Numbered from the stretch's first letter, positions 3,660 to 57,751 are shown. The stretch is DNA of 64,000 nucleotides from an uncultured Chloroflexota bacterium (GCA_964417895.1 CAYQJS010000004.1:51724-115723); one strand, 5' to 3'. Notes: generated from the letters alone by a model not told the origin. Program-made: numbers and translations.

Positions 3660-4679
3660 CTACGCCCATATGTCACAACTCGGGAGGGCCCTCCGCAGAC
3701 GATCAAGCCCTGCGTCGGTGATCGCCGTGTCGACGAGGGCAAGCATCTCGAGCTGAGTCAGCCCGCGCAACGCTTCCAGCCCCGCGTCGGTGATCGCGGT
3801 ACCGCTGAGAGTAAGCTTCCGGAGCTGAGTCAGCGCGCGCAGCGATGCAAGCCCACCATCGGTGATCGCCGTGTCGTTGAGTTCAAGCGACTGGAGGTGA
3901 GTCAGCCCGCGCAACACTTTCAGCCCCGCGTCGGTAATGGCGGTACCGTTGAGGTGAAGGCTCTTGAGCTGAGTCAGTCCGCTCAATGCTGCCAGCCCTG
4001 CGTCGGCGATTGCGGTATCGTTGAGCCACAGTGTCTCCAGCTGCCTAAACGCGCGCAACGCTGCCAGCTCCGTCCCGGTGATCGCGGTCTCCCATAGACC
4101 AAGCTCCTCGAGCTGGGTCAACCCGCTCAACGCCGCCAGCCCCGCGCCGGTGATTTTTGTATGGCCGATGGAAAGCGTCCTCAGTTGCGTCAACCCGCGC
4201 AAGGCTTCGAGCCCGACGTCGGTGATCGCCGTGTAGGCGAGCTCAAGCGACTTGAGTTGAGTCAGCCCACTCAATGCCGTAACGATTGCGTCAGTTACCT
4301 CACTGTCTTGCGAGGAGTACGCGGGGCTCAGGCCTTTCCCAGACGAGAATTCCAAACCATAAAGATCATTCGGGCCTAGCGCCACGAGGGGCGAAGGATC
4401 ACCGAGACGATCTGGGTATATCCGCAGAGTCACCAGAGCATTGGCACTGACAGTGACGTCACCCCTGGCATCCCGCCATTCAGACGCATAAGTCTGCCCC
4501 TTACCCTCATTGGCAATGGCGTACTCACCGATCGACCGGTCCCTGGGGAAGCGGATCGTTCGCGTGGATAGCCGGGCAAGATCGGCCAAAGTGCGGCCAA
4601 CCAGTTGCGACGAGGCGAGCCGTGCGAGCGCGGACTGGCGCGCTGGCACTAGGCTCTGCGTAGGCTCCTCGGGCTTCAT
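3660..4679 (-). CDS. leucine-rich repeat (LRR) protein, no signal peptide
   Basis: About 9 tandem 24-aa repeats LxGLTQLxxLxLxxTxITDAGLxAL after a ~135 aa unique N-terminal region. Confidence 0.85.
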   Translation of the reverse strand: MKPEEPTQSLVPARQSALARLASSQLVGRTLADLARLSTRTIRFPRDRSIGEYAIANEGKGQTYASEWRDARGDVTVSANALVTLRIYPDRLGDPSPLVALGPNDLYGLEFSSGKGLSPAYSSQDSEVTDAIVTALSGLTQLKSLELAYTAITDVGLEALRGLTQLRTLSIGHTKITGAGLAALSGLTQLEELGLWETAITGTELAALRAFRQLETLWLNDTAIADAGLAALSGLTQLKSLHLNGTAITDAGLKVLRGLTHLQSLELNDTAITDGGLASLRALTQLRKLTLSGTAITDAGLEALRGLTQLEMLALVDTAITDAGLDRLRRALPSCDIWA

Positions 4680-8540: not shown

Positions 8541-8616
8541 GGCAGGCGAACCCTTGCCAGGTTATTAAGCGGCCCACAACACTCGTGCGCGCCTCTCCCG
8601 CCTCATGGCTCACGCC

Positions 8617-10332
8617 TCACGCCTTGACGTCCCACTCGTGGGCGTTCCAGCCGTGGGTGCCGCGGGACGTCCGGGCCACGACGTGCAGCACTCGCTGGTT
8701 CACCAGGATAGGCTCGATGGTGTAGAAGATCCCCATGAGGAGCACCTGGTCGGCGATGTGGGTGATGATCTCCGAGGCGATGGCGACGCGGTCCTGGCGG
8801 GCTACCGTGACATAGTACCGATCGATGAGCGCGTCGAACTCCGGGTTCGCATAGCGCGAGATGTTCGACCCCGTGTAGTTGGACTCCTGCCGCGGTGACT
8901 GCGTGCTGTGGAGGTTGCTCAGCGCCCGAAGCTGGTTCGGTCGCTGCGTGAGCTGGAACGCCGGGAAGCTCGTTACCCATTCCGCGTCCGATAGCCGCTG
9001 CGTCGGCACGATCATCGGCTCCACCGCGACACCAGCCTTCTGCCAGTAATCGGCAATGGAGAAAAGGAGCTTACGCCGCAAGTCGTCGCCGGCGTTGGCG
9101 CGCACCTCCAGCGAGAGCTTGCGGTTCGCGGCATCCACGAAGCTCCCGTCCTGGCCTCTCGTGTAACCGAGGCCTTCGATGATCTGCGTCGCCCGCCGCA
9201 CATCGAACTCGTACTTCGCTACGAGGGGGTCGATCTCCGCGAACTCGGGCTCCGTGGGGCTCATGTAACTGTGGGCCACAGAAGTGAGGCCGGCCATGAA
9301 CGTGTTCACCATCTCCTGGCGGTCCATGGCATGAAGCAGAGCGCGGCGGAACTGGGGATCGGTCACCAACACGGGGCTCGGCGTGAGGAACTGCGGCCAC
9401 AGCTGGATCCACGTGTACGGAGCAGCTTCCACCCGCCCTTCGCGCCATCGCTCCTGGACCTGCGTCGCCTCTTCGACCGAAAGGCCCCTCCCCATCGTGA
9501 AGTCCACGGCGCCAGCGAGGATGCTCGCCACGAGCGTGTTGGAGTCAGCGAGGAAGCGGATCTCAACCTCGTCGATCCTGGGTCGCCCCAGCGCGTAGCG
9601 ATCGTTCGCCTCTACGACCAGGTGGCTACCGCGCTCCCAGGCCTTCAGCTTGAACGGGCCTGTGCCCACGAACTCGTGGCTCCAGTGAGGCAGCTCGACG
9701 TAGCCGGCCTTGTTCTCCATGTAGGCCCGCTCGAGAAGGTGCTTTGGCTGCGGCATGCCGAGCCCCGGCGAGAACAGCGCGTCGGCCCCGATGTAGGGCA
9801 CCCTCCACCGGGCGATCACCGTGTGGGCGTCCACCGCCTCCACGCCCTCCAGGTTCTGATACGCCCGGTCGCGGAAAACACCCACATCGCGGTCCTGAAC
9901 GACCTGGGCTGTGAACACCAGGTCGTCTGCCGTAAACGCGGCGCCGTCGTGCCACTGGCTGTTGGGCCTGATCCTCCAGGTCGTCTCCATTCGGCCGTCA
10001 GGAAATACTTTCCAGAGACCGTTCTCGAGGCTTGGTATCGCCTCGGCCAGTCTGGGCGCGAGGGCCGCGCCCTTGTCCAGGGTGCTGAGCCCGGCGTGGA
10101 CGAGCTCTTCGAGGGCCTCCGAACCGGGCGGTGTGTACGCGCCCGCGGAGCTGATCTGGTAGTTCAGGGCGAACGGGTCTCCCAGGATCGCCGCGGTCAC
10201 GCGCTTCGGCGCCGATGGCCGGGTGACCTGCGCGTTGTCGCTCGGGGTCCGCGGGCCTTGCGGCGCGGCGCAGCCGGCCACGACGAGCGCCAGGACGAGG
10301 CTAAAGGAACGGAGTAGGTTGGCGGTGCTCAC
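8617..10332 (-). CDS. ABC transporter substrate-binding lipoprotein (family 5, peptide/nickel type)
   Basis: GTG 10332 preceded by ggaggtg; signal peptide with lipobox LVVAGC; family-5 SBP length and composition; the track start at 10359 lies inside a heptamer array. Confidence 0.85.
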   Translation of the reverse strand: MSTANLLRSFSLVLALVVAGCAAPQGPRTPSDNAQVTRPSAPKRVTAAILGDPFALNYQISSAGAYTPPGSEALEELVHAGLSTLDKGAALAPRLAEAIPSLENGLWKVFPDGRMETTWRIRPNSQWHDGAAFTADDLVFTAQVVQDRDVGVFRDRAYQNLEGVEAVDAHTVIARWRVPYIGADALFSPGLGMPQPKHLLERAYMENKAGYVELPHWSHEFVGTGPFKLKAWERGSHLVVEANDRYALGRPRIDEVEIRFLADSNTLVASILAGAVDFTMGRGLSVEEATQVQERWREGRVEAAPYTWIQLWPQFLTPSPVLVTDPQFRRALLHAMDRQEMVNTFMAGLTSVAHSYMSPTEPEFAEIDPLVAKYEFDVRRATQIIEGLGYTRGQDGSFVDAANRKLSLEVRANAGDDLRRKLLFSIADYWQKAGVAVEPMIVPTQRLSDAEWVTSFPAFQLTQRPNQLRALSNLHSTQSPRQESNYTGSNISRYANPEFDALIDRYYVTVARQDRVAIASEIITHIADQVLLMGIFYTIEPILVNQRVLHVVARTSRGTHGWNAHEWDVKA

Positions 10333-10352
10333 GCGCTCACCTCCGAAAACGA

Positions 10353-10394
10353 GTCCCAAGTCCCAGGTCCCAAGTCCCAGGTCCCAGGTACCGA
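10353..10394. repeat. tandem heptamer array, 6 x GTCCCAG/GTCCCAA
   Basis: gtcccaa gtcccag gtcccaa gtcccag gtcccag gtaccga, between the amidohydrolase stop and the SBP start. Confidence 0.9.
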
Positions 10395-14213: not shown

Positions 14214-14222
14214 CTCGCCTCC

Positions 14223-14287
14223 GTGACTGCTCGTCGTGATTGCCTGTCGTAATTGCCTGTCGTGATTGCCTGTCGTGATTGCCTGTA
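14223..14287. repeat. 5 x 13-bp tandem repeat (gtgattgcctgtc)
   Basis: gtgactgctcgtc gtgattgcctgtc gtaattgcctgtc gtgattgcctgtc gtgattgcctgta in a divergent intergenic region. Confidence 0.9.
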
Positions 14288-16904: not shown

Positions 16905-17058
16905 CCCCCTCTACCTCTGGGAGAGGGCAGGGGTGAGGGCGCCACCCTCTTCCTCTTGGGAGAGCGGGGTTTGGGCGCGCCGCCCGGGGAACGCCCTCAC
17001 CCGACTCGTCCCGATCGCTCGGGGCTCGCCGGCCTCTCCCAGAGGGAGGCGTGGAGGT
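16905..17058. repeat. REP-like hairpin elements, family 2 (ccctctcccagagggag...ggtgagggcg), about 3 copies
   Basis: ccctctacctctgggagagggcaggggtgagggcg; ccctcttcctcttgggagagcgggg; cctctcccagagggagg. Confidence 0.8.
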
Positions 17059-19317: not shown

Positions 19318-19331
19318 CGCTTGCCTCCTTG

Positions 19332-19402
19332 TCGCCCTCACCCCAGCCCTCTCCCAGAGGGAGTGGGGGCGGCCCTCCTCAGTCCTCAGTCCTCAGTCCT
19401 CG
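19332..19402. repeat. family-2 REP hairpin followed by a short heptamer array (AGTCCTC x3-4)
   Basis: cgccctcaccccagccctctcccagagggagtgggggcgg, then cctcctc agtcctc agtcctc agtcctc, ending at the UbiD stop. Confidence 0.8.
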
Positions 19403-20857
19403 CTAAGTCCAATAGCTGGTGCGGTCCATCGGGATCCTGCTTAGCACATCCTGCGAAATGTAGTCCTCCAGCCTGACCCGCTCCATGGCGTCGTCGGGGC
19501 ACCTGGAGACGGGCGAGAACGGGCGCCCGAGCGGGCGGGTGGCATCCACGATCATGCACGAGGTGCGGACCTCCGCCTCCTCGTCCACCAGCGACGGGTC
19601 CAGCTCGTTGCCCTTCATGATGTCCTTGATGATCTGGATTTGCCGGTGCGGCTGGACGCGCGTGGCCAGCGCCCAGAAGATCTCCGTCGGGTTGTAGACG
19701 TCGATGTCGTCGTCCACGACGAACACATTCTTGGAATGGTCGAAGCTCAGCACGGCGGCGGCGGCGCGGCCGGGGTCGCCCTCGCTCGTCTTCTTCATGG
19801 CGATGAAGATGTTGAAATGGGCGTGGCGGCCCGCCTTGCAGACGGCCGTCACCGAAGGCACTGCTTCGCGGGCGCGCCGCAAGTAGGCGGCCTCCCGTGG
19901 GAGGTCGAGCCACGGCTTGTCGCCCTCGGGCGTGATGATGGACTGCATAATGGCGTCGCGCCGATGCGTGATGGCCCGGACCTCATAGTGCAGCGAGTCG
20001 TGGTACCGCTGCGGACCCAGATACCCGGGCGCCTCGCCGAAAGGCCCGTCCACCTGCCGCTTGCCGGGCAAGAACGCACCCTCGATGACCACCTCGGCGT
20101 CGGCGGGCACCATCAAGCGCTCGCCCCACGTCTCCGATGGCACGAGCCGCAAGGGCTCCTGCAGGTAGGCGCCGATGATCCGGTACTCGTCCACCTCGAA
20201 GGCCCCCCGGAAGGCGGCCCCCATGTTGAACGCGGGGTGGTGGCCCAGAATCGTGGCTACCGGGCACTCCTCGCCGTGCTCCTCGTATGCTTTGAAGATC
20301 TTCCACAGGTGGCGGGGCGTCACCAGGCAGCTGGTCAGGCGCGGGCCTTTCACCTCCATGCGGTGGTACGAGGTGTTGTAGATGCCCGTGTCACGGTCGC
20401 GGCTGACGGTCGCCATCACGATGTAAGGGCCGCCATCCATGTAGTGGTGGCGCATGATTGGCAGCTCGGTGAGATCCGCCTCGTCACCGATCTTCACCAC
20501 GTCCTTGACGGGCGCACGCTCGCGCGGTACCACGATGGGATCGACCGGCCGCGCCTCGCGGCGCAGGCACTCGTCGCCCATCTCGGCCCGGCTCATGCCA
20601 AACGGTACGCCGAGGGCCACTTGCGCCTTGCTCTGGGTGATCTCGGCGTTGAGCATCAGGCGGATGTCGGCAACCTGCCCCTGAAGGTTCAGCGGCCGCT
20701 CGAACGTGACGACCGGAAACTTCTTCAGCGCGTCCAGCTTCTTGATGATAGCCGTGCAGTCGTAGTGTGCCGGGTCCACGGTGGCGTCGATGCTGATCAC
20801 TTCGTCGGGCAGCAGCTCGTGGAGATCGTCGAGATAGGTGCGCAGGCTTTTGGGCAT
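19403..20857 (-). CDS. UbiD family (prenyl-FMN-dependent) decarboxylase
   Basis: Start at MPKSLRTYLDDL (ATG 20857, ggaggg SD); ~484 aa, UbiD-like throughout; the track ORF N-terminus (to 21292) is repeat-derived. Confidence 0.88.
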   Translation of the reverse strand: MPKSLRTYLDDLHELLPDEVISIDATVDPAHYDCTAIIKKLDALKKFPVVTFERPLNLQGQVADIRLMLNAEITQSKAQVALGVPFGMSRAEMGDECLRREARPVDPIVVPRERAPVKDVVKIGDEADLTELPIMRHHYMDGGPYIVMATVSRDRDTGIYNTSYHRMEVKGPRLTSCLVTPRHLWKIFKAYEEHGEECPVATILGHHPAFNMGAAFRGAFEVDEYRIIGAYLQEPLRLVPSETWGERLMVPADAEVVIEGAFLPGKRQVDGPFGEAPGYLGPQRYHDSLHYEVRAITHRRDAIMQSIITPEGDKPWLDLPREAAYLRRAREAVPSVTAVCKAGRHAHFNIFIAMKKTSEGDPGRAAAAVLSFDHSKNVFVVDDDIDVYNPTEIFWALATRVQPHRQIQIIKDIMKGNELDPSLVDEEAEVRTSCMIVDATRPLGRPFSPVSRCPDDAMERVRLEDYISQDVLSRIPMDRTSYWT

Positions 20858-20912
20858 GAGGCCCTCCAAGTCTTCGCCAGCGCTCGGCCGCCACAATTCT
20901 GATGACTCATAG

Positions 20913-20972
20913 GGGCGAGGCATGCCTCGCCCACCTCGCGTCGAGGGCACGCGGGTCAGGCATGCCTGACCC
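20913..20972. repeat. two perfect 20-bp palindromes with a GCATGC core (family 4)
   Basis: gggcgaggcatgcctcgccc (20913-20932) and gggtcaggcatgcctgaccc (20953-20972). Confidence 0.9.
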
Positions 20973-21033
20973 CTACCGCAGTCATCACATCTTTGGCGGC
21001 GAAGCACCAGCGGGCACGCCAGTATAGTCATTT

Positions 21034-21110
21034 GCGGATTGCGGACTGCGGATTGCGGATTGCGGATTGCGGATTGCGGATTGCGGATTGCGGACTGCGG
21101 AGCGCGGAAT
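21034..21110. repeat. tandem heptamer array, 11 x GCGGATT/GCGGACT
   Basis: Counted unit by unit from 21034 to 21110. Confidence 0.95.
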
Positions 21111-21245
21111 GAACGGACGGTCTCGTGGCCACCGCCCATCGCTGAGCCGGCAGATGGTACGAGCGCTAGCTGGCTATAAGCGACGCGCCGCCTCCCCGCA
21201 TTTCGCAAGCCCCAATCGGCACTCCGCAGTCGGAGTGACCTGGCA

Positions 21246-23648
21246 ATGAGTGACTCGACGTCTTCCCACATTCCGCAATCGGCAATCAGCAATCAGCAAT
21301 CCGGTTACGTTGGTCAGGGCGTACGGCGGCGGGAGGACGACCGCCTGCTGAGGGGCAAGGGCCTGTTCGTCGCGGACGTGCGCCTGCCCGGTATGGCGCA
21401 CGCCGCTTTCCTCCGCAGCGCCTACGCGCACGCACGCATCGTGCGGGCGGACGTGAGAGGGGCGCTGGCGCAACCGGGCGTGCTGGACGCGCTCAGCTTC
21501 GCTGAGCTGGGCGAGAGCACGCCAACGCTCCCCAACCTCATGCCCCACAAGCTGCTGCGGTCCGCAATGCCCTACCCGCTCGCCCGGGACCGAGTCCGCT
21601 ACGTCGGCGAGCCGATCGCGGTGGTCGTGGCCGAGAGCCGCTATCGGGCCGAGGACGCCCTCGACGCGATCGAGGTCGAATACGAGGACCTGCCGGCCGT
21701 CACACAGGCCGAAGCCGCGCTCGGGCTCGGCGCGCCGCTGCTGCACGAGCATCTTGACAGCAACCTGGCTGCGGAGATGATCCAAACAGTGGGCGACCCT
21801 GACGGGGCCTTTGCCCGTGCGGATGTGGTCGTAGAGCTGCCGTTTCGCTTCGGGCGGGCCAGCGCCCAGCCCCTGGAGACTAGAGGCGTCGTGGCTCGCT
21901 ACGAGCGCAGCGCGTGGTCCCCCTCCGGCGGGTTCACTATCTGGGCCTCGACGCAGATGCCGCACAACGCGCGACGCGTGCTCGCGGGCATGCTCGGGTT
22001 GCCGGTCCAGGCGGTGCGCGTGATCGCGCCCGACATCGGCGGCGGCTTCGGCGTCAAGATATATTGCTACCCCGAGGAGTACCTCGTGGCGGTGCTGGCG
22101 CGCCGCGTCGGGCGGCCCGTACGGTGGATCGGGGACCGCCGCGAGGATCTCCTGGCCTCCTACCAGGCGCGGGAGCAGACGCACCACGTGCAGGTGGCCG
22201 CGGCCGGCGATGGCTCGCTGCTGGCCGTGCGCAACCGCTTCACAGTGGACATCGGCGCGTACTGCCCATGGGGGCTGGTGGTGCCGTTCAACGCGGCGAC
22301 GACGCTACCCGGGCCGTATCGCGTGCCCAACTACCACGTCGAGATGCGGGCCGTCTACACCAACAAGCCGCCCATGGCCCCCTACCGGGCGGCCGGTCGC
22401 CCGCCGGCTGTGTTTGCCATCGAGCGGGCCCTCGACCTGATCGCGCGGAAGCTCGGGATCGAGCCCTCTCAGGTTCGCTTGCGCAACTTCGTCCAGCCGA
22501 ACGAGTTCCCCTATCGCCTGGGGCTGATCGATCGCGACGGCCAGGAGCTGTCGTACGACAGCGGCAACTACCCGGCCTGTCTTCACCAGGCCCTGGAGCT
22601 GATCGACCTCGACGGGTTCCGGCGCGAGCAGAAGGCCGCACGCGGCCAGGCGCGGTATCTCGGACTGGGGATCGGCTGCTATGTGGAGGCTACGGGTCGC
22701 GGCCCGTTCGAGGGCGCGACGGTGCGCGTCGAGCCGTCGGGGAAAGTCCTGGTGCTCACCGGCGCGGCGCCCCAGGGACAATCCCACGAGACGACATTGG
22801 CGCAGCTCTGCGCCGACCGGCTCGGCGTGGACCTGGACGACGTGACCGTGATCGCAGGCGACACGGACGCCATTGGCCTCGGGGTGGGCACGTTCGCGAG
22901 CCGCACAGCGGTGGTAGCGGGCAACGCGGTGAGCATGGCAGCCCGCAGCGTGCGGCAGAAGGCGCTACAAGTGGCGGCGCAGCTGCTAGAGGCGGGCGTC
23001 GACGATCTTGAGCTACGCGCGGGTACGATCCAGGTACGCGGCGTGCCAGACAGACAGGTGAGCCTGGCACGGGTGGCGCAGGTTGTCACGGCGCCGCCGC
23101 CAGCGTTCACGTTCCCCGAGGGGCTGGAGCCAGGCCTCGAGGCGACCCACTACTTCCACCCGACCAGCAACACGTACGCCAACGGTGCGCACATCGCGAC
23201 CGTCGAGGTAGATGTGGAGACGGGCGTCGTCAGGGTGCTGCGCTATACGGTGGTGCACGACTGCGGCACCGTGATCAACCCCCTGGTCGTGGAGGGCCAG
23301 ATTCACGGCGGCGTGGCTCAGGGGCTGGGCAACGCGCTGTACGAGGAGATGGTGTACGACGAGGCCGGCCAGCCCGCGACGACCAGCTACATGCACTACC
23401 TGATCCCGACGGCGATGGAGGTACCCGGAATCGCCGTGGGGCACGAGACGACCCCCTCGCCGCTCAATCCCGAGGGGATCAAGGGGACAGGCGAGGGTGG
23501 AACCATGCCCGTCCCAGGTGTGATCGCCAACGCCATCGACGATGCTCTGGCGCCGCTTGGTGTGGTTGTGGACCGGGTGCCGATTACGCCAGCGCGATTG
23601 CTTGCGATGATACGCGCGGCGACAACTCAAGACGCTGGCGGCCTGTAG
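21246..23648 (+). CDS. xanthine dehydrogenase/aldehyde oxidase/CoxL family molybdopterin-binding subunit
   Basis: 800 aa; N-terminal VGQGVRRREDDRLLRGKGLFVADV, typical large-subunit layout; the first ~20 codons are encoded by the heptamer array, so the start is uncertain. Confidence 0.88.
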   Translation: MSDSTSSHIPQSAISNQQSGYVGQGVRRREDDRLLRGKGLFVADVRLPGMAHAAFLRSAYAHARIVRADVRGALAQPGVLDALSFAELGESTPTLPNLMPHKLLRSAMPYPLARDRVRYVGEPIAVVVAESRYRAEDALDAIEVEYEDLPAVTQAEAALGLGAPLLHEHLDSNLAAEMIQTVGDPDGAFARADVVVELPFRFGRASAQPLETRGVVARYERSAWSPSGGFTIWASTQMPHNARRVLAGMLGLPVQAVRVIAPDIGGGFGVKIYCYPEEYLVAVLARRVGRPVRWIGDRREDLLASYQAREQTHHVQVAAAGDGSLLAVRNRFTVDIGAYCPWGLVVPFNAATTLPGPYRVPNYHVEMRAVYTNKPPMAPYRAAGRPPAVFAIERALDLIARKLGIEPSQVRLRNFVQPNEFPYRLGLIDRDGQELSYDSGNYPACLHQALELIDLDGFRREQKAARGQARYLGLGIGCYVEATGRGPFEGATVRVEPSGKVLVLTGAAPQGQSHETTLAQLCADRLGVDLDDVTVIAGDTDAIGLGVGTFASRTAVVAGNAVSMAARSVRQKALQVAAQLLEAGVDDLELRAGTIQVRGVPDRQVSLARVAQVVTAPPPAFTFPEGLEPGLEATHYFHPTSNTYANGAHIATVEVDVETGVVRVLRYTVVHDCGTVINPLVVEGQIHGGVAQGLGNALYEEMVYDEAGQPATTSYMHYLIPTAMEVPGIAVGHETTPSPLNPEGIKGTGEGGTMPVPGVIANAIDDALAPLGVVVDRVPITPARLLAMIRAATTQDAGGL
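21270..21304. repeat. inverted partner array (AATCCGC-type heptamers x5)
   Basis: attccgc aatcggc aatcagc aatcagc aatccgg is the reverse complement of the 21034 family; degenerate copies back to ~21205. Confidence 0.85.
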
Positions 23649-26454: not shown

Positions 26455-27635
26455 GGCCTCCCGCTTGGTGAGCGCAGATCCTTCGCTTCCCTCAAATACC
26501 CCCTCTCCCCCTTCGAGGGGGAGAGGGCTGGGGGTGAGGGGGTCAGGATGACATGATCCGGGTCAGAGCCCCACTCGACACCCGCGAACCGGGGCGCCAC
26601 CTGGGTGGCGAACAGCTCGAGGGTCCGGAACGCCGCGGCGTCGCTCATCCCCCCGAAGTTGATCTGGAGCGACGGCTCGAACTCACCCAGCACCGTGCGC
26701 AGGTACGCCAGTTGCTCGGCCACCTCGTCGGGCGTGCCCACGAGGGCCGTGTAGCCGTCGATGAGCTTCTGCGCCGTCTGGGCGCGGATCGCTTCGACCA
26801 TCTGGCCGTAGCCCGCGTAGCTACCGGAGGCGCGGCCCTCCCATGAGGAGACTGCCTCGCTGAACACCTCGATATAGCGATCGATCGGTCGCTGGAAGCC
26901 AGCAATCGCCTCCGCGTGAGTGGCGGCGACATACGTGTGGAGGGAGACCTGCACCTGCCATCCGCCGGTCGGACGTCCAGCGTCGATCCAGGCCGCCGTA
27001 TAGCTCTTCAGCAGTTGTCCTGTGCGCTCGAGATTGCCGGCGAAGGGCACCAGCATGAGGTGATAGCCCTGCCGCCCAGCCGCGGCGAACGATTCCTCAG
27101 ACAGAACCGCCGCGATCCATATGGGGGGATGGGGCTGCTGGAGCGGGCGCGGCGTGAGGTGGATGCCACTCAGATGGAAGAAGCGGCCGTCGTGGCTCAC
27201 CCGATCCTCGGTCCATAGTCGCTTGATGACGCCCACGCCCTCTTCGAACCGCTCGCGGCTCTCGTCCATGTCGATCCCGAAGGCATCGAACTCGGCCGGG
27301 ATGAAGGCGCGCCCGAAGCCCACGTCCAGCCGCCCGTTGCTGATGTTGTCCAGCATCGCCAGCTCACCGGCCACCTTGATCGGGTTGTTGAAGGCGGGGA
27401 TGACCGCCCCCGTGATCGGCCGCAGGCGGCGTGTCCGCGCGGCGATTGCGGAGAGCAGCACGATGGGGCTGGGGGTGTGCCCGCCGTAGTCGTGGAAGTA
27501 GTGCTCAACCGCCTTGGCCGAGGTGTAACCGAGGGCGTCGCCGCGCTCGCTCAGGCGCAGCACCTGGTCGAAGTACTCGGCCGTGGACATGTCGGCGAGC
27601 CGAAACGACGGGAAGAAGTTGAGGCCGTAGCGCAT
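26451..27635 (-). CDS. LLM-class flavin-dependent oxidoreductase (luciferase-like monooxygenase)
   Basis: Start MRYGLNFFPSF (ATG 27635); ...LDNISNGRLDVGFGRAF...; the last ~35 aa (..PSPPALSPSKGERGYLREAKDL..) are encoded by repeat elements. Confidence 0.85.
   Translation of the reverse strand: MRYGLNFFPSFRLADMSTAEYFDQVLRLSERGDALGYTSAKAVEHYFHDYGGHTPSPIVLLSAIAARTRRLRPITGAVIPAFNNPIKVAGELAMLDNISNGRLDVGFGRAFIPAEFDAFGIDMDESRERFEEGVGVIKRLWTEDRVSHDGRFFHLSGIHLTPRPLQQPHPPIWIAAVLSEESFAAAGRQGYHLMLVPFAGNLERTGQLLKSYTAAWIDAGRPTGGWQVQVSLHTYVAATHAEAIAGFQRPIDRYIEVFSEAVSSWEGRASGSYAGYGQMVEAIRAQTAQKLIDGYTALVGTPDEVAEQLAYLRTVLGEFEPSLQINFGGMSDAAAFRTLELFATQVAPRFAGVEWGSDPDHVILTPSPPALSPSKGERGYLREAKDLRSPSGRP
26475..26552. 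repeat. nested repeat: family-2 hairpin inserted inside a family-1 arm
   Basis: cagatccttcgcttc | cctcaaataccccctctcccccttcgagggggagagggctgggggtgaggggg | tcaggatgac; compare the uninterrupted cagatccttcgcttcgctcaggatgac at 1172. Confidence 0.8.
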
Positions 27636-27640
27636 CGCGA

Positions 27641-27778
27641 GTCCCAGGTCCCAAGTCTCAAGCCCCAAGTCTACGCTTCCCGGTCTCCGTGCGAAAAGTT
27701 CAGGATGTATCGCGAGCCGGCGGTCTGCGATTGAGGGCTGGGGCGCGAGAATCGACCTGGGACTGGGACTGGGGACTT
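27641..27778. repeat. inverted heptamer arrays (GTCCCAG family) flanking a ~80 nt spacer
   Basis: gtcccag gtcccaa gtctcaa gccccaa gtctacg (27641-27675) versus cctgggactgggactggggactt (27756-27778). Confidence 0.85.
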
Positions 27779-27930
27779 CACGCCCCCAGGTACATTGCAA
27801 ACCTCCCGGTTGCTGCAAGGTTAAGGACTGCGCGCGCCGGCCTCCGACGCGTGATCTCTGGCCTTCGAGGCTAGCTGCGTCATACTATCGCCACGAACGC
27901 AGCCTACACGTTAACACAAGGAGGAGCGCG

Positions 27931-31829: not shown

Positions 31830-32140
31830 CCACCCCCGTTTTTTCTGGGGGCTTCGCCCCCAGCCCCCGGGGGGATTGGCGCGGGCTTTGCCCCGGCGCC
31901 CCAGGGCAGGGGCCATCTTCCTTCCCCCCAGCGCCCCGGGGGGCGGGTCTTCATTCCTTCCCGAGGGCGGGCGGCGGGGGCCGCCTTCATTCCTTCGCCC
32001 CAGCCCTGGGGGCGGTCTTCGTTCCTTCCCCTCAGGGCGAGGGAGGGGGTGAAGTTAGCGCACCTCCGCGATTCGGCGACTCTCAGCCCAGCCCTCCTCC
32101 ACAAGGGGAGGGGCTGGTCCCTCTGCCCTCAGCGCTCCTC
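31830..32140. repeat. G/C-run hairpin repeat region including a 4-copy ~38-bp tandem array
   Basis: Units ..atcttccttcccccc.., ..gtcttcattccttccc.., ..gccttcattccttcgcccc.., ..gtcttcgttccttcccc.. (about 31908-32050), each followed by a G-run; family-2 copy at ~32085. Confidence 0.75.
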
Positions 32141-38697: not shown

Positions 38698-39714
38698 CTA
38701 CAGTCGCCCCTCAGCAATCAAATACTCGGCCACCTGCACAGCGTTGAGCGCCGCGCCCTTGCGCAGGTTGTCGGACACGATCCACATCGCCACGCCGTGT
38801 GGATGTGATATGTCGTTGCGGATGCGGCCGACGAACACCTCGTCGCGGCCGGCAGCGTCCAGAGGCATAGGGTACCGCGATTCCGCCGGCTCATCCACGA
38901 CGCAAACGCCCGGCGCCGACGCGAGCAGGTCGCGCACGTCGGCAGCGCTCATGGGGCGGGTCAGCTCGATGTGGACCGCCTCCGAGTGGCCAATCTCGAC
39001 GGGAACGCGGACGGTTGTGGCCGAGATGGCGATGTCAGGAGCATGCATGATCTTCCGCGTCTCGTTCACCAGCTTCATCTCTTCGCTGCAATACCCATTC
39101 GGGCTGAAAGAGCCGATCTCCGGCAGCACGTTCAAGACGATCTGGTGTGGATACACAGTGTGATCGATGTCTGCCCCGCTGGCGTGGGCATGGGTCTGAT
39201 CTTCTAGCTCCTGCATCGCCGCCGCGCCGGTCCCCGAAACTGCCTGATACGAGTCGCAGATGATGCGGGTGATGGGGTTGACGCGGTGGATAGGGGCTAG
39301 CGCAACGACCATTTGAATGGTCGAGCAGTTGGGACCGGCGATGATACCGCCGTGTGTGAGGGCGTCTTCGGCGTTCACCTCAGGGACGACCAGCGGGACG
39401 TCGGGATCCATGCGCCAGGCGTTGCTCTTATCTATCACGACATCGCAGGCTCGGGCAGCGACAGGCGCCAGCTCGCGGCTAACAGCGTCGTTGGCAGAGA
39501 TCAGCGTGAAGTCAATGCCGTCAAACGAGTCGCCGCTTACGGCATGGACCGCTACGCCCTCGCCGCGAAACCGGATGGTCTTCCCCTCCGAGCTGGGGGA
39601 TGCAAACAGTCGCAGCTCACCGACCGGAAAACTGCGCTCCTCGAGGATTTGCATGAACGTGCGGCCGACCGCTCCCGTTGCGCCCACCACCGCGACGTTC
39701 ACCCTGTGTGACAC
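38698..39714 (-). CDS. asd: aspartate-semialdehyde dehydrogenase
   Basis: VAVVGATGAVGRTFMQIL..., GPNCSTIQMVVAL (active-site Cys). Confidence 0.92.
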   Translation of the reverse strand: MSHRVNVAVVGATGAVGRTFMQILEERSFPVGELRLFASPSSEGKTIRFRGEGVAVHAVSGDSFDGIDFTLISANDAVSRELAPVAARACDVVIDKSNAWRMDPDVPLVVPEVNAEDALTHGGIIAGPNCSTIQMVVALAPIHRVNPITRIICDSYQAVSGTGAAAMQELEDQTHAHASGADIDHTVYPHQIVLNVLPEIGSFSPNGYCSEEMKLVNETRKIMHAPDIAISATTVRVPVEIGHSEAVHIELTRPMSAADVRDLLASAPGVCVVDEPAESRYPMPLDAAGRDEVFVGRIRNDISHPHGVAMWIVSDNLRKGAALNAVQVAEYLIAEGRL

Positions 39715-39785
39715 CTATCCTCCCTGCCCGCCGAGCTTCCGCGATCTCGCACAAGGGGGCATCAGGCGTGACTATACACTCGCCA

Positions 39786-39885
39786 CAGTTCCGCGTTCTG
39801 AGTTCCGAGTTCCTCGGGGAGTCGCTCTGGTTGCTCGGGAGCTGGGAACTGGACCTGGGACTTGGGACTCGGAACTCGGAACCGA
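39786..39885. repeat. inverted heptamer arrays (GAGTTCC / GGAACTC family) filling the dapB-asd spacer
   Basis: cagttcc gcgttct gagttcc gagttcc (39786-39813) versus gggaact ggacctg ggacttg ggactcg gaactcg gaaccga (39844-39885). Confidence 0.85.
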
Positions 39886-39886
39886 C

Positions 39887-40711
39887 TTACAGCCCCATGA
39901 GCGCGTCGAGGCCGTAGACCAGCCCGACGTGCTCCCGGATGTGCTTCACGGCGAAGGCCACGCCCGGGAGGAACGAGTCGCGGCCAATGGAGTCGTGGCG
40001 GATGGTGAGCGACTGCCCGGGCCCGCCGAACGTGACCTGGTGCGTCGCGACGAAGCCCGGCAGGCGCAGGCTGTGGATGTGGACGTCCTCAACCACGCCG
40101 CCGCGGGTGTGCTCGACCACGTGTTTGCTCACATGATCGCCAGCGAACGGGGCGTCCCGCCCCTGGCGCATCGCTTGGGCAATGGCTATGGCTGTGCCGG
40201 AGGGTGAGTCAATCTTGGCGTCGTGGTGGATCTCGATGATCTCGGCGGCATCGAGGTATCGGCTCGCCATCTTCGCGAACTGCATGAGCAGGTTGGCGCC
40301 GATGGCGAAGTTGGGGGCTACGAGCGCGCCCACGCCGGCCTCTCGCGCGAGATCGTCGATGGTTGCCAGGTCCTGCTGGGTGAGTCCCGTCGTCCCGATG
40401 ACGATAGGGACGGCGCGCTTGAGCGCTACCGCGGCGTTTGCCCGCGCCGCTTCAGCAGTCGTGAAGTCCACAACCACGTCCGCGTCGACAGCATCCAGCA
40501 AACTCGCCAGGTCGGGGGCCGTTGCAAGCTCCGCTGTTGGTCCATCGGCGCGCGGCCGCGGGTCGCAGCCGCCCACCAGGGTGATTGCCGGGTCCAATGA
40601 GAGCCCACGGACCATCTCCTCGCCCATCCGCCCGTTGACGCCGCAGATAACAAGACGGATAGGGGTCGGGGGTCGGGGGTCGGGGGTCGGCGCGGAGGTT
40701 TCATGTGCCAT
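39887..40711 (-). CDS. dapB: 4-hydroxy-tetrahydrodipicolinate reductase
   Basis: IRLVICGVNGRMG (NAD site), EIIEIHHDAKIDSPSGTAIAIA; the N-terminal TSAPTPDPRPPTP is encoded by a heptamer array. Confidence 0.9.
   Translation of the reverse strand: MAHETSAPTPDPRPPTPIRLVICGVNGRMGEEMVRGLSLDPAITLVGGCDPRPRADGPTAELATAPDLASLLDAVDADVVVDFTTAEAARANAAVALKRAVPIVIGTTGLTQQDLATIDDLAREAGVGALVAPNFAIGANLLMQFAKMASRYLDAAEIIEIHHDAKIDSPSGTAIAIAQAMRQGRDAPFAGDHVSKHVVEHTRGGVVEDVHIHSLRLPGFVATHQVTFGGPGQSLTIRHDSIGRDSFLPGVAFAVKHIREHVGLVYGLDALMGL
40662..40689. repeat. 4 x GGGGTCG tandem heptamers inside the annotated dapB 5' coding region
   Basis: ggggtcg ggggtcg ggggtcg ggggtcg. Confidence 0.9.
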
Positions 40712-41719: not shown

Positions 41720-44071
41720 CTACTGCGGTGCGCCGCCCTGCGGTGCGCCGCCGGCGTCGTCGCCGCGGGCCGGCTCGCGTCTGGGGCCGAAATCTCGATT
41801 GCCGGGACCCGAGCGGGGACCGCGGAAGGGCGGGCGGTCGCCGCCGTCACGGTAAGGGGGGCGGCGGTTCTCGTCGCGGAAACGTGGCCCGTCGCCCCGC
41901 GGTGGGCCGCCGTCGCCTCGCGGGCCGCCGAAGCCACCCTGCGGACGGCCCGTCCCCGCGCCCAGTGGCCGAGGGGGGGTCTGCTCACCGTTCGAAGGCG
42001 CGAGCAGGGCTCGACGCGACAGGTTGATGCGGCCCTGGCGGTCGATCTCGGTGACCAGCACGCTCACGTCGTCGCCGATCTTGACGATGTCCTCGACGCT
42101 GTTGACGCGGTAGTCGGCTAGCTCCGAGATGTGGACCAGCCCTTCCTTGCCGGGCAGGATCTCCACGAAGGCGCCGAAAGCCATGATGCGGGTCACCTTG
42201 CCGGCATAGACCGTGCCCACTTCCACGTCGCGTGTGAGCCCGTTGATGATGTCGATCGCCTTCTGGGCGTTCTCGGCGTCTGTCGAGCCGATCAGCACGG
42301 TCCCATCGTCGTCGATGTCGATGGTGCACTTCGTCTCTTCCGTGATGCGACGGATCATCTTGCCGCCGGGGCCGATGATGTCTCGAATGCGATCGGGGTT
42401 GATGGTCAGTTTGGTGATGCGCGGCGCGTAAGGCGAGAGCTGCGGCCGAGCCCGGTCGATCACCTCGAGCATCTTCCCCAGGATGAACATGCGGCCCTCG
42501 TGGGCCTGGGCTAGGGCCTGGCGCATGATCTGCGCCGTGATGCCCCGCACCTTGATGTCCATCTGGAGGCCGTTGATGCCCTGAGCCGTGCCGGCGACCT
42601 TGAAGTCCATGTCGCCAAGGAAGTCCTCGACGCCCTGGATGTCGGTCATGATGCGGTAAGTCCCGTCCTCGCCGGTGATCAGGCCCATGGCCACGCCGGC
42701 AACGGGCGCGCGGATCGGGACGCCGGCATCCATGAGGGCGAGAATGCCTCCGCATACGCTTCCCATGGACGTGGAGCCGTTGGATGAGAGCACCTCCGCC
42801 ACGAGGCGGATCGTGTAGGGGAACTCGTCCTCATCGGGGATCACCGGGAGCAGCGATCGCTCGACCAGGTGGCCGTGGCCGATGTCGCGGCGGGAGGGGC
42901 CCACCATGCGTCGAGTCTCGCCGGTGCTGTACGGCGGGAAGTTGTAGTGGTGCATGAACCGCTTGGATTCCTGGACGCCGATACCGTCGATGATCTGCTC
43001 GTCGGCCACGGTCCCCAGCGTCGCGACGCTGAGGACCTGGGTCTGGCCCCGAGTGAAGAGCCCGGAGCCGTGCGTGCGCGGGAGGACGCCCACCTCGCAG
43101 GTGATGGGGCGGATCTCCGTGAGTGATCGGCCGTCGGGCCGAAGGCCGCGCTCGAGGATCGCGCTGCGGACCGTCTCCTTCTCGAGGCCGTCGAAGATCT
43201 TGGCGACCTGCTTCTCTTCGTATCCTCGGCTCTTGAACTCCTCCGCCAGCTGAGCGCGAACGGCGGCGACATCGCTCTCGCGCTGCGCCTTGTCGGGGTT
43301 GAACATCGCGCGCTGGAGTCGGTCACCCATCCACTGGCGGACCTCGGTCTCTAGCTCGTGGTTAGTCTCTGCCGTCGGATACGACCGCTTGGGCTTGCCG
43401 ACGCGCTCCACCAGGCGGGTCTGCAGCGCCACAAGCTCCTTGATGGCCTCGTGCCCGAACTCGATTGCCCGAAGCATGGTGTCCTCGGTCAGCTCCAGGG
43501 CCCCGGCCTCGATCATCATGACGGCGTCGGCCGTCCCCGCAATTGACAGGTCGAGCCGGCTGTGGGCCAGCTCGGAGAGGGTGGGGTTGATGACGAACTG
43601 GTCGCCAATGTACCCAACGCGAACGGCGCCGACGGGCCCGTGGAAGGGGATGTCCGAGATGCTGAGGGCGGCCGAGGCGCCGACGATCCCCAGGGACGAT
43701 GGGTCGTTCTGCTGATCGGTGGAGAGCACTGTGATGACGATCTGGGTTTCGTTGCGGTAATCCTTCGGGAAAAGGGGACGCAGGGGCCGGTCGGTGAGCC
43801 GGGCGCTCAGAATCGCCGTCTCGGAGGGCCTCCCCTCACGCTTGAAGAAGCCGCCCGGGATCTTGCCCGCGGCGTACATCTTCTCCTCGAAGTCCACCGT
43901 GAGCGGGAAAAAGTCGATCCCCTCGCGTGGCAACCCCGAACTGACCGCGGTGGCCAGGACGACGGTGTCGCCATATCGGACGAGGACGGCGCCGTCGGCC
44001 AGGCCGGCGAGGCGCCCCGTCTCGAGGGTAAGCGTCCGCCCGGCGAACTCGATGGATACGGTCTCTGGCAT
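41720..44071 (-). CDS. pnp: polyribonucleotide nucleotidyltransferase (PNPase) with Arg/Gly/Pro-rich C-terminal tail
   Basis: Two RNase PH domains, KH and S1 ([32 protein letters not shown]); 783 aa. Confidence 0.95.
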
Positions 44072-46949: not shown

Positions 46950-47378
46950 ATGGAGCTTGACCTGGCGGCGGCGAACCGGGTGATCGAGGCCTGCATCGTC
47001 GAGGGGCGGGCCGTCGGCCGAAATTTCAGCATCGTCGTGGTGGACGCGGCGGGGACATTTATCTCGGCTCAACGGATGGACGGCGCGGCGATCCTCACGT
47101 CACAGATCGCGTGGGGAAAGGCATACGGCTGCGCCGCGTTCCGGCGCGACGGGCCGCAGCTGGCCCAGATGGCCACGAACACGGCGTTCGTCAGCTCCCT
47201 CATCCAGATGACCGGCGGCCGGTTCGTGGCGGCGCTCGGCGCCTCGCGGCTCATGGACGGCGAGAAAGTGCTCGGCGCGGTGGGCGTGAGCGGAGCGGCA
47301 GCCGAGCAGGACCAGCAGGTCGGAGGCGGGAGCGCGCGCGTTCCAGCCCGGCCCAACGCCGTGAGCCGTGAGCCGTGA
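46950..47378 (+). CDS. GlcG/HbpS-like heme-binding protein (DUF336), paralog
   Basis: FSIVVVDAAGTFISAQRMDGA...AWGKAYGC...GAVGVSGAAAEQDQQ; the C-terminal ..NAVSREP is encoded by the heptamer array. Confidence 0.8.
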   Translation: MELDLAAANRVIEACIVEGRAVGRNFSIVVVDAAGTFISAQRMDGAAILTSQIAWGKAYGCAAFRRDGPQLAQMATNTAFVSSLIQMTGGRFVAALGASRLMDGEKVLGAVGVSGAAAEQDQQVGGGSARVPARPNAVSREP

Positions 47379-47523
47379 GGCGTGAGGGAGGAAAGGGATA
47401 GCGCGAGAGTAAGCCACAGATCCGATGCCAGCGCCGCCAGCGACGCCGATCCGACCCCTCCGGCCTCACGCCTCACGGCTCACGCCTCGCTTCAGGCCTC
47501 ACGGCCCGCGCCTCACGCCTCAC
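47358..47523. repeat. inverted heptamer arrays (GCCGTGA x4 / CCTCACG x~8) around a ~78 nt spacer
   Basis: gccgtga gccgtga gccgtga ggcgtga (47358-47385) versus cctcacg cctcacg gctcacg ... tcacgcc tcac (47464-47523). Confidence 0.9.
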
Positions 47524-54669: not shown

Positions 54670-54811
54670 GATCGGTCTCAGGTCCCGTGTCCAAAGTCCC
54701 AGGTGCGGGCTAGACTTCGTACGTTGGACCCGGGGGCCTGGGGCTGCGGCTATTCTACAATCTCACCCACCGGGGACGGGCTCACCAGGACGGGACACCG
54801 AGGGCGTAGCA

Positions 54812-55420
<609 letters not shown>

Positions 55421-55423
55421 CTG

Positions 55424-55547
55424 CCAGCTATCAGCCGTCAGCCTTCAGTGGCCCGGCGCCCTCGTCGCCTGGCCGTTCCTGGCTGACGTGATGGCTGACC
55501 GCTGGAGGCTTCGTCTGATGGCTGAGGGCTGGTAGCTGATGGCTCGC
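55424..55547. repeat. inverted heptamer-type arrays (TCAGCCG / GGCTGA family) that include the pfkA start codon
   Basis: ccagcta tcagccg tcagcct tcagtgg (55424-55451) versus ggctgac..ggctgacc..tgatggctgagggctggtagctgATGgctcgc (55481-55547). Confidence 0.8.
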
Positions 55548-56612
55548 ATCGGTGTCCTCACCGGTGGCGGGGATGCGCCGGGTCTGAATGCCGTGGTCCG
55601 CGCGATCGTCAAGGCCAGCCATACCCTCCACGGCTGGGACGTCCTCGGCATCGAGGAGGGGTTCGTCGGCCTCATCGACACCGGGCGCACGCGCCTACTC
55701 ACTCCTGAGGATGTACGCGGCATCCTGCCGCGGGGCGGCACCATCCTCGGCGCGAGCAATCGCGGCAACCCCTTCCTCTACCAGGCGGCGCCCGAATTGC
55801 CTCCGGTCGATATGTCTGAGCGGGTCGTCGAGAACGTCAAACGGCTGGGCATCGACGCACTCATCGTAATCGGAGGCGACGGGACGCTGTCCATCGCTCA
55901 GGAGCTCACGAGCATGGGAGTTCGCCTGGTTGGCATCCCCAAGACCATCGACAACGACCTCTCAGGGACCGACGTGACGTTCGGCTTCGATACCGCCGTT
56001 GTGACGGCCACGGAGGCCATCGACAAGCTCCACACCACCGCGGAGAGCCACCACCGTGTCATGGTGCTCGAGGTGATGGGCCGGAACGCCGGCTGGATCG
56101 CCATCGAGTCCGGCATCGCAGGGGGAGCCGACATCATCTGTATCCCGGAAATCCCCTTCCGCACCGAGCGAGCGCTGGATGCCATCAGGCTGCGAGACGC
56201 GGCGGGGAGCAAGTTCAGCATCGTGGTTGTCGCCGAGGGAGCGGTGTCCTCGGGCGGCGAGCAGATGCGAGTCGAAGGGACCTCCGGCTTTGGTGCCCGC
56301 TACGCGGGTATAGGAAACTGGCTGGGGGACCGCCTGGCTGAGGGAACGAACCACGAGGTAAGAGTGACCGTGCTGGGGCACGTGCAGCGCGGTGGCAGCC
56401 CCAGCGCCTTCGACCGCATCCTGGCCACTCGCTTCGGGACGGCGGCCGTCGACTTGATCTCCGGCGGCGGGTTTGGCCGAATGGTGGCCTACCACGGGCC
56501 CGACGTCGTGAGCATCCCCCTCTCCGACGCCATCCGGGCTCCGAAGATGGTCCCGGCCGATGGCGAGCACGTGCGGACAGCCCGGGCCCTGGGGATCTGC
56601 CTCTGCGATTAG
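55539..56612 (+). CDS. pfkA: ATP-dependent 6-phosphofructokinase
   Basis: MARIGVLTGGGDAPGLNAV, VIGGDGTLS, GIPKTIDNDL, MGRNAGW. Confidence 0.9.
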   Translation: MARIGVLTGGGDAPGLNAVVRAIVKASHTLHGWDVLGIEEGFVGLIDTGRTRLLTPEDVRGILPRGGTILGASNRGNPFLYQAAPELPPVDMSERVVENVKRLGIDALIVIGGDGTLSIAQELTSMGVRLVGIPKTIDNDLSGTDVTFGFDTAVVTATEAIDKLHTTAESHHRVMVLEVMGRNAGWIAIESGIAGGADIICIPEIPFRTERALDAIRLRDAAGSKFSIVVVAEGAVSSGGEQMRVEGTSGFGARYAGIGNWLGDRLAEGTNHEVRVTVLGHVQRGGSPSAFDRILATRFGTAAVDLISGGGFGRMVAYHGPDVVSIPLSDAIRAPKMVPADGEHVRTARALGICLCD

Positions 56613-57693: not shown

Positions 57694-57751
57694 GGCGGGG
57701 ATCAAGAAGGATCCGGCCCTGGCTCTCCCAGTTCCAGCGAGAGAAAGCGGC

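Follow-up and report, generated by a model that had tools for sequence, protein, structure and literature searches.

Heptanucleotide repeat arrays facing one another at gene boundaries in a Chloroflexota-like genome: a probable STRR/long-SSR-type family

A stretch of 64,000 nucleotides (nt) from an uncultured Chloroflexota bacterium, called the window throughout and meaning the whole stretch that was analysed, carries two facing arrays of tandem heptanucleotides at the start of a gene for the Mo-binding subunit of a xanthine-dehydrogenase-family enzyme (Mo-hydroxylase). Similar arrays recur elsewhere in the window, giving heptamer arrays at 10 loci in 64 kb that use at least seven different units and have unrelated spacers. 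Our favoured reading, to which we assign a probability of roughly 60%, is that the arrays belong to a lineage-specific heptamer family of the short tandemly repeated repetitive (STRR) or long simple sequence repeat (SSR) type in a Chloroflexota-like genome, generated by slippage and inverted duplication, confined to gene boundaries by purifying selection, and having incidental or tunable effects on mRNA folding. The nature of the arrays and their dynamics at the DNA level are observed directly, in the window and in its close relatives. An effect at the RNA level is what we infer from them, and by analogy with the hmw1A locus of Haemophilus influenzae it would most likely be an effect on mRNA structure.

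At the focal locus, both Tandem Repeats Finder (TRF) and a reading in register confirm that the facing arrays are real, with 11 units on the left and a reverse-complement array on the right. The left arm (21032-21108, plus strand) is made of head-to-tail GCGGATT/GCGGACT units which, in the register that begins at 21034, run GCGGATT, GCGGACT, six copies of GCGGATT, GCGGACT, GCGGAGC and GCGGAAT; TRF reports it as 21032-21101, period 7, 10.0 copies, 95% matches and a score of 126. Since six consecutive units are identical, a recent expansion of this arm is suggested. The right arm, also given on the plus strand, falls into two blocks of five units each. Block A (21199-21233) lies in the 5′ untranslated region (UTR), has degenerate reverse-complement units with 5-6 of 7 matches to CAATCCG, and is 83% complementary to its left-arm partner. 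Block B (21269-21303) has 6-7 of 7 matches per unit and reads CATTCCG, CAATCGG, CAATCAG, CAATCAG and CAATCCG, with TRF reporting 21275-21301, period 7, 3.9 copies and 95%. A preliminary description of this DNA had counted five clean copies here; five units are indeed present, but in most of them one base departs from the exact complement. Across the locus the arms are 79-87% complementary.

The two blocks are separated on the plus strand by five unit-lengths (21234-21268) that are no longer recognisable as heptamers, keep the same heptamer phase, contain the Mo-hydroxylase ATG at 21246 and form a side-hairpin bulge in the predicted fold. As block A stands in the heptamer phase of block B, the whole right side (21199-21303) can be read as a single 15-unit array in which the middle five units have decayed. 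A Shine-Dalgarno (SD)-like GGAG (21232-21235) stands a short way 5′ of the ATG, and block B is translated as Mo-hydroxylase residues 9-20 (IPQSAISNQQS), the right arm thus being split between the 5′ UTR and codons 9-20. The spacer between the left and right arms (21109-21198) matches nothing in Rfam, resembles none of the spacers at the remaining paired loci, and carries the start of a 46-codon upstream open reading frame (uORF, 21109-21249), whose TGA overlaps the Mo-hydroxylase ATG as ATGA; with a GC content at third codon positions of ~64%, against 80-87% in real genes, the uORF is probably not coding and was treated as non-coding.

Directly 5′ of the focal array, at a distance of 3-4 nt, a -10-like hexamer TATAGT (21024-21029, plus strand) forms part of GTATAGTCA. 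This sequence has two exact copies in the window (21022-21030 on the plus strand and 39769-39777 on the minus strand), both of which adjoin heptamer arrays in the sense orientation, 5′ of the Mo-hydroxylase gene and of asd respectively, and both of which look like -10 boxes. If TATAGT is used, the focal array would form the extreme 5′ end of the Mo-hydroxylase mRNA. A search of 20800-21400 against Rfam, including Moco-type riboswitches, gave no match at E <= 1, and the sole Rfam match across the window was a tRNA.

The excess of period 7 holds for the window as a whole. In a mismatch-tolerant scan for periods 2-15, with expectations taken from Markov shuffles, period 7 yielded 8 segments under the stricter threshold and 11 when scores of at least 10 were accepted, against 0.05 expected, and no other period reached more than three segments. 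TRF likewise places period 7, with 3.7-10 copies, at 11 sites. The likening of the arrays to STRR heptanucleotide tandem repeats is therefore sound as regards their period-7 units and window-wide excess, and at least three head-to-tail 7-nt copies, location at gene ends and length polymorphism are likewise those of heptanucleotide long SSRs of the STRR type. Canonical cyanobacterial STRR units include CCCCAGT, for example. The arrays in the window are not cyanobacterial STRRs in the strict sense, as the best relatives of the window's proteins are in Chloroflexota MAGs and the units differ, though GGGACYT resembles GGGGACT.

Every locus that the preliminary description had named in its count of at least 10 was found, including the pairs at 27641/27757, 39788/39837, 47358/47463 and 55424/55480. 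Inverted pairs account for six of the 10 loci if a weak partner at 54714-54734 is counted, and the remaining four are single. Of the arrays that had been listed as single, those at 8595, 10352, 19376 and 40662 are so, but the one at 54672 faces that weak, degenerate partner. All 10 loci are intergenic or lie within the first or last ~20 codons of a gene (up to ~47 at a major facilitator superfamily (MFS) gene, if its GTG start is used). Arrays touch the stop codons at 8617, 19403, 39887, 47376 and 55420, and on the start side they touch 27635, 55539, the DapB N-terminal tail and Mo-hydroxylase residues 9-20, which bears out the observation that arrays sit at gene boundaries and that several run into start or stop codons.

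Three of the single arrays are on the minus strand. The (GCGTGAG)n array (8595-8624) begins in the stop codon of an SBP_bac_5 gene, where the TGA at 8617 falls inside a GCGTGAG unit, and extends into the 3′ UTR; (YTGGGAC)5 (10352-10389) lies between an Amidohydro_2 stop (10402) and the SD sequence and GTG (10332) of a solute-binding protein (SBP) gene; and (GAGGACT)3.7 (19376-19401) starts 1 nt past the UbiD stop (19403) and is followed by a GGGAGAGGG-type palindrome. The fourth, (GGGGTCG)4 on the plus strand (40662-40690), is 100% pure, and its minus strand, (CGACCCC)4, encodes the DapB N-terminal tail PTPDPRPPTP. Among the pairs, (YTGGGAC)n on the minus strand (27641-27669) ends 5 nt 5′ of a luciferase-like monooxygenase gene's ATG (27635) and pairs with (CTGGGAC)n on the plus strand (27757-27779), which is ~150 nt 5′ of a cupin gene (27931). 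The other arms are given on the plus strand. In the dapB-asd hairpin, a GTTCCGN arm (39788-39813) faces a GGGACYT/CGGAACT arm (39837-39882) that lies 5 nt past the dapB stop (39887). At the end of an HbpS-like gene, (GCCGTGA)4 (47358-47387) supplies the final six codons (AVSREP) together with the TGA stop (47376), and its partner (GCCTCAC)9 (47463-47523) lies in the sole open frame that leads into the MFS transporter gene. The CAGCYNT arm (55424-55445) begins 3 nt past the Oxidored_molyb stop (55420) and faces a GGCTGAY-type arm (55480-55545) whose last unit, CTGATGG, contains the phosphofructokinase (PFK) start codon (55539). The degenerate (GTCCCAG)n array with its weak inverted partner (54672-54734) lies between two divergent genes, fumarase (ATG 54657) and Oxidored_molyb (GTG 54812).

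A comparison of copy number across strains, proposed in the preliminary description, reveals differences between close relatives. Against L082, a strain at 96% nucleotide identity (related sequences carry L numbers), the window shows seven indels over 4.6 kb, and the two largest, of 48 and 20 nt, both lie in heptamer arrays. The TCCCARG array after dapB (39837-39882) is 20 nt longer in L082, and a 48-nt segment with (CGACCCC)4 at the dapB start is missing there, leaving a clean in-frame junction that restores an ATG. The segment is likewise missing from L084 (~96% amino acid identity), like L082 a strain of the same species as the window, whose contig ends inside the array after dapB. In the array-less strains (junctions at L082 3780 and L084 1220) the restored ATG overlaps the upstream stop codon. 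Relatives at 73-76% DapB identity keep (CAACCCC/CGACCCC)n at this place (L164 3014-3040, L165 1023-1053), so the array locus at the dapB start is old, but has been re-homogenised to 100% purity in the window. The degenerate arrays behave differently from the perfect ones: the 55424-55545 hairpin has the same unit count as its counterpart in L166 (92.9% identity), with three stem substitutions that all break pairs, and the orthologous (NCCGTAA)5/(ACGGAYT)5 hairpins of L008 and L012 are 87% identical, as are their flanks, with no compensation. Such behaviour, in which perfect arrays vary and degenerate ones keep their unit count, is the life cycle classically described for microsatellites.

Relatives at genus and family level that share the gene order (L083, L085, L002 and L167/L168; 12-22 kb scanned) have no comparable arrays and at most one low-score 15-16-nt match each, that in L167/L168 being a 16-nt period-7 match; ~780 kb of more distant loci contained one distinct array. 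Several Anaerolineae-type Chloroflexota metagenome-assembled genomes (MAGs; L008, L009 and L012) carry heptamer arrays as inverted pairs. The gap between dapB and asd (39714-39887) is 172 nt in the window and the two genes overlap in L083, L085 and L164, while the gap between Oxidored_molyb and PFK (55420-55539) is 118 nt against 27 nt in L167. At both junctions the extra DNA is essentially inverted heptamer arrays, and these pairs, to judge by the relatives, are recent gains. Growth of the pairs from ancestral terminator hairpins was rejected at the two loci, because the relatives' genes overlap or lie 27 nt apart and the pairs are thus not elaborated ancestral terminators. In L008 (5146-5200 and 5670-5720) and L012 (5534-5580), inverted AATCCGT/ATTACGG arrays stand beside tRNA-like sequence (GGTTCGAACC T-arm).

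Under the favoured reading, slipped-strand mispairing would create, resize and homogenise the arrays, and point mutation would then stabilise them and let them decay. Persistence would be expected only where a 7-nt period is tolerated, that is, in intergenic DNA, in UTRs and in dispensable N- or C-terminal protein tails. Facing arrays would be born at the DNA level, either by fold-back or template-switch copying of an array or from a short inverted repeat whose two halves both expand, and selection for base pairing would not be their main cause. At the focal locus, the near-pure (GCGGATT)11 would be the young and active half, and the opposing half an old, decayed 15-unit complementary array that now underlies the SD sequence, the start codon and the first 20 Mo-hydroxylase codons. 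If transcribed, possibly from the TATAGT box, the locus would give a ~270-nt hairpin enclosing the translation start, and left-arm copy number would tune mRNA folding, stability or translation in the manner of the (ATCTTTC)n hairpin of hmw1A. Two roles offered in the preliminary description fit here: a 5′-UTR regulator is plausible as a model, and the footprint of a repeat-generating process is compatible with all data presented.

Several observations weigh against this reading. Simple slippage leaves unexplained the preference for 7 nt, and also the number of YTGGGAC dimers in the window (12 against 2 expected). It does not account for the bias in unit sequence either: units containing GGAYT, a motif chosen post hoc (GCGGAYT, GAGGACT, GGGACTT), occur at 6 of the 10 loci against 2% expected (binomial tail 2e-8). 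Similar units are found elsewhere in Chloroflexota (ACGGAYT, GGAGAYT, GGGGAYT), and their recurrence across phyla, in Chloroflexota, Nostoc and Xanthomonas, is equally unexplained by slippage, as is the emergence of hairpin-shaped spacers of 90-170 nt between abutting genes. The DapB array has 4-5 in-frame units across genera, and the L008/L012 hairpin keeps its copy number, both of which could reflect function. A strict sigma-70 promoter scan of 20700-21500 found none. Finally, a protein search with the Mo-hydroxylase N-terminus gave a best match of 71% and hence no closer relative of the focal locus; the focal array can therefore not be compared between strains, and its own copy-number variability is taken from that of the other arrays.

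The unit bias, seen in other phyla too, hints at a generating process that depends on sequence. One could go further and suppose a sequence-biased, possibly enzyme-mediated process, common to Chloroflexota, cyanobacteria and Xanthomonas, that creates GGAYT/GGGA-type heptamer arrays de novo at gene junctions, together with inverted copies of them, splitting formerly overlapping genes while stop and start are kept adjacent in the folded mRNA; at present we hold this to be a speculative and quite unlikely extension.

A different possibility is that the paired arrays are selected RNA structures, serving as RNase III or stability determinants, terminators or insulators, or elements of translational coupling, with the heptamers merely building and tuning the stems. 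Folding predictions lend this some weight. As the preliminary description had anticipated, paired arrays are predicted to form long hairpins: all five clear pairs fold as long imperfect hairpins with z = -2.2 to -6.5 relative to dinucleotide shuffles, the focal one at -134 kcal/mol on the plus strand (z = -4.4). Six of 10 loci are paired, with folding well beyond shuffled controls. The stems start 0-5 nt from stop codons and reach up to or into start codons, and in the predicted fold of 55415-55550 the upstream stop codon pairs beside the PFK AUG, leaving stop and start adjacent despite ~90 nt of extra sequence. Unit number is unchanged at 87-93% identity in the hairpins of L008/L012 and of window/L166, the focal array has a -10-like box directly 5′ of it, and for the hmw1A analogue such a role is experimentally proven. 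However, neither of the two orthologous comparisons contains a compensatory change, the substitutions break pairs, and the hairpin regions diverge at about the rate of their flanks. At the three loci between co-directional genes, the gene strand folds better at one only and the antisense strand equally well or better at the other two; superior folding is not a consistent property of the sense strand, and so there is no sign of RNA-level selection on G-U pairs. The stems lack following U-tracts, an intrinsic-terminator scan of 20700-21500 found none at the focal locus, four loci have a single array only, and relatives have no hairpin at the same gene junctions. We treat selected RNA structure as a tentative and rather unlikely alternative.

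The arrays had also been proposed as contingency loci, in which slippage by 7 nt would switch or tune the adjacent gene in a phase-variable way through frameshifts or through promoter or UTR length. Copy number and presence or absence do vary between 96%-identical strains, dapB and the Mo-hydroxylase gene, and probably the MFS gene too, have arrays inside their 5′ coding ends, and at hmw1A phase variation is indeed driven by heptamer SSRs (PMC8262952, PMC12721329). The proposal nevertheless fits poorly. The neighbouring genes have housekeeping or central-metabolic functions (dapB, asd, pfk, fumarase, UbiD and an ABC-type solute-binding protein) and are not surface, restriction-modification or virulence genes, the arrays of Xanthomonas are also without functional enrichment (PMC4692102), and the strain difference at the 5′ end of dapB, an essential gene, is a clean 48-nt in-frame deletion that recreates the ATG. 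The DapB array moreover holds its in-frame unit number across genera, and most arrays are too impure for frequent slippage. In our judgement phase variation is a very improbable explanation.

Mobile insertions similar to MITEs (miniature inverted-repeat transposable elements) or REPINs, whose terminal inverted repeats happen to be built from heptamers, would explain why hairpin-shaped spacers of ~90-170 nt are present here at dapB/asd and Oxidored_molyb/PFK and absent in relatives of the same gene order, and the YTGGGAC unit does recur at five loci; yet the paired loci share no core, arm length or spacer, their junctions are without visible target-site duplication, units vary by locus, arm length shifts in slippage-like steps and no transposase is found among the annotated flanking genes, and we give the idea scarcely any credence. 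Non-B DNA (G-quadruplex or i-motif) or iterated protein-binding sites, roles suggested for GGGAATC in Xanthomonas, the heptamers of Nostoc and TAACTGA in Beggiatoa, are just as hard to credit: (YTGGGAC)5 at 10352 and (GGGGTCG)4 at 40662 fit the G-quadruplex pattern G3+N1-7 x4, the GGAYT/GGGAC unit bias is common to other phyla and YTGGGAC arrays lie in the sense orientation 5′ of four start codons, but the focal GCGGATT array, with GG runs only and no G3 tracts, does not fit the pattern and neither do most others, at least seven different units argue against a single binding protein, and orientation is inconsistent, a rule that the G-rich strand is always sense 5′ of starts having been dropped when it held for 6 of 10 start-proximal arms only.

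With respect to the host and the genes around the focal locus, the best relatives of the window's proteins are in Chloroflexota MAGs (70% for the Mo-hydroxylase), DapB matches named Chloroflexi at 66-69%, and a metagenome contig of the Joint Genome Institute (JGI; sample 3300010391) is 100% identical to the window over 3.3 kb; the host is an uncultured Chloroflexota-like bacterium. Exact-protein look-ups with the Mo-hydroxylase and the cupin gave no match. The Mo-hydroxylase gene (21246-23648, plus strand) shows the Pfam domains Ald_Xan_dh_C, MoCoBD_1 and MoCoBD_2, and the UbiD-family decarboxylase gene (19403-20857, minus strand; Pfam) is divergent from it. The arrays had been described as lying between these two genes, and so they do, but the UbiD start at 20857 is not adjacent to the array. 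In the closest genome (L002, 70%) the UbiD gene is on the same strand and the arrays are absent, so its layout is not orthologous. Between the UbiD start and the focal array there is also an 88-nt compound palindrome (20900-20987) in which TGATGACT/AGTCATCA flank two hairpins (20910-20932 and 20953-20975), each centred on GGCATGCC; within the window, the GGCATGCC-centred palindromes (20910-20975) do not form a dispersed family.

Repeats of other kinds were recorded as well. Palindromes of the GGGAGAGGG...GGGGTGAGGG type recur in the window (16907-16978, 19330-19372 and 26517-26542) and are stacked several times over 5′ of dapB in relatives (L083 4090-4260, L085 8560-8600, L164 2760-2940 and L165 730-1000); they are a second repeat family, separate from the heptamers. 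Five 13-nt tandem units, CGTGATTGCCTGT (14222-14286, 90% matches), make up the sole other short-period array with more than four copies. A tandem repeat with a 72-nt period (3706-4268, 7.8 copies, 69% identity) probably belongs to a protein with a 24-residue repeat. At 31918-32035 there are four tandem units of ~36 nt; in each of them TCTTCATTCCTT follows a GC-rich stem-loop (CCCCCC...GGGGGG), and the units may represent a stack of terminator-like hairpins. Other strain-level indels are a 15-nt tandem duplication region near the C-terminal end of PNPase (41723-41752), which differs from L082, a 53-nt insertion relative to L166 after a 321-aa gene (57692-57745), and a 7-nt indel 5′ of Oxidored_molyb (54768).

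Repeats of this type have already been described in cyanobacteria, Xanthomonas and Chloroflexus, and the window is a real and largely ordinary new example of them. What it adds is a dense, multi-family example from a little-studied phylum, in which strain pairs reveal the arrays that are now changing, relatives of the same gene order reveal the recent gain of hairpin spacers, and the unit sequences converge on the GGAYT/GGGA theme of unrelated phyla. The unit bias across phyla and the hairpin spacers gained de novo are the parts most worth pursuing. Transcription of the focal hairpin, if it occurs, would give a metabolic gene a natural and tunable 5′-UTR structure and extend the hmw1A mechanism beyond pathogens. 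In practice, such arrays break short-read assemblies, two related contigs ending inside them, and mislead the calling of start codons.

Among bacterial long SSRs, heptamers are the most over-represented class and polymerase slippage has been proposed as their source, according to the summaries in PMC4679880 and PMC4692102. The preliminary description regarded paired arrays in a high-GC, non-cyanobacterial genome as new, a claim that gives way to the precedent of Xanthomonas (PMC4692102), to which Chloroflexus can be added (PMC6749651). Xanthomonas (65% GC) has ~185 arrays of the GGGAATC type, with 70-75 occurring as inverted pairs (Rehm et al. 2015, PMC4692102), and these arrays differ in length between species and show no gene-class enrichment. 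The Nostoc GGGGA(C/T)T heptamers include a few inverted pairs (PMC4692102). Like the SSRs of both, the arrays in the window have 7-nt units, are mostly intergenic (there with hundreds per genome; PMC4692102), have no tie to a particular gene class, and use GGGACYT, which the GGGA-N-T-N consensus resembles. They further share with Xanthomonas a high-GC, non-cyanobacterial host, convergent pairs able to form stem-loops or cruciforms, and array lengths that differ between related genomes, the type (pair or single) being preserved there. Xanthomonas, however, has one dominant unit family able to form G-quadruplexes, whereas at least seven families occur in these 64 kb, several arrays here are overprinted by coding termini, and the host phylum is Chloroflexota.

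The cyanobacterial STRRs come in several families as well, three heptamer families in Calothrix PCC 7601 (PMC4692102), and a regulatory role has been suggested for the Nostoc heptamers near start codons. Several heptamer families, an intergenic position often touching starts (bioRxiv 10.1101/2022.06.06.494920) and unit variants that switch between C and T at one position are features common to STRRs and the window; phylum and GC content are different, and inverted pairs, rare in Nostoc, make up about half of the loci here. Within the same phylum, Chloroflexus aurantiacus has 22 (GATAGRA)n satellites (PMC6749651), likewise a heptamer-derived tandem family, which in contrast has a single unit family and was described as satellites only, without analysis of pairing or gene boundaries (PMC6749651). 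The TAACTGA repeats of Beggiatoaceae, for which the authors propose a binding site of a post-transcriptional regulator (PMC4679880), are similar in being direct heptamer repeats in the sense orientation a few nt 5′ of starts, and dissimilar in involving one specific heptamer with one inverted case only (PMC4679880). The repetitive extragenic palindromic (REP) sequences, bacterial interspersed mosaic elements (BIMEs) and REPINs of proteobacteria are likewise inverted pairs in intergenic DNA, with hairpins that lie between genes or follow them (PMC3116915), but REPs are conserved palindromes of ~20-35 nt, mobilised by RAYTs, with a genome-wide consensus and no tandem heptamers (PMC3116915).

The closest mechanistic analogue of the focal locus would be hmw1A of H. 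influenzae, where RNase III processes a transcribed 5′-UTR hairpin whose left arm consists of ten (ATCTTTC) repeats, and where repeat number sets expression (PMC12721329). Both loci have ~10 heptamers as the left arm of a long hairpin 5′ of a gene, here predicted only, and variable repeat number is a feature of hmw1A. There, however, the right arm is a G-rich non-repeat, the gene product is an adhesin, and demonstrations exist of transcription, of cleavage by RNase III and of phase variation, whereas the focal gene encodes a metabolic Mo-hydroxylase and its hairpin is predicted from sequence.

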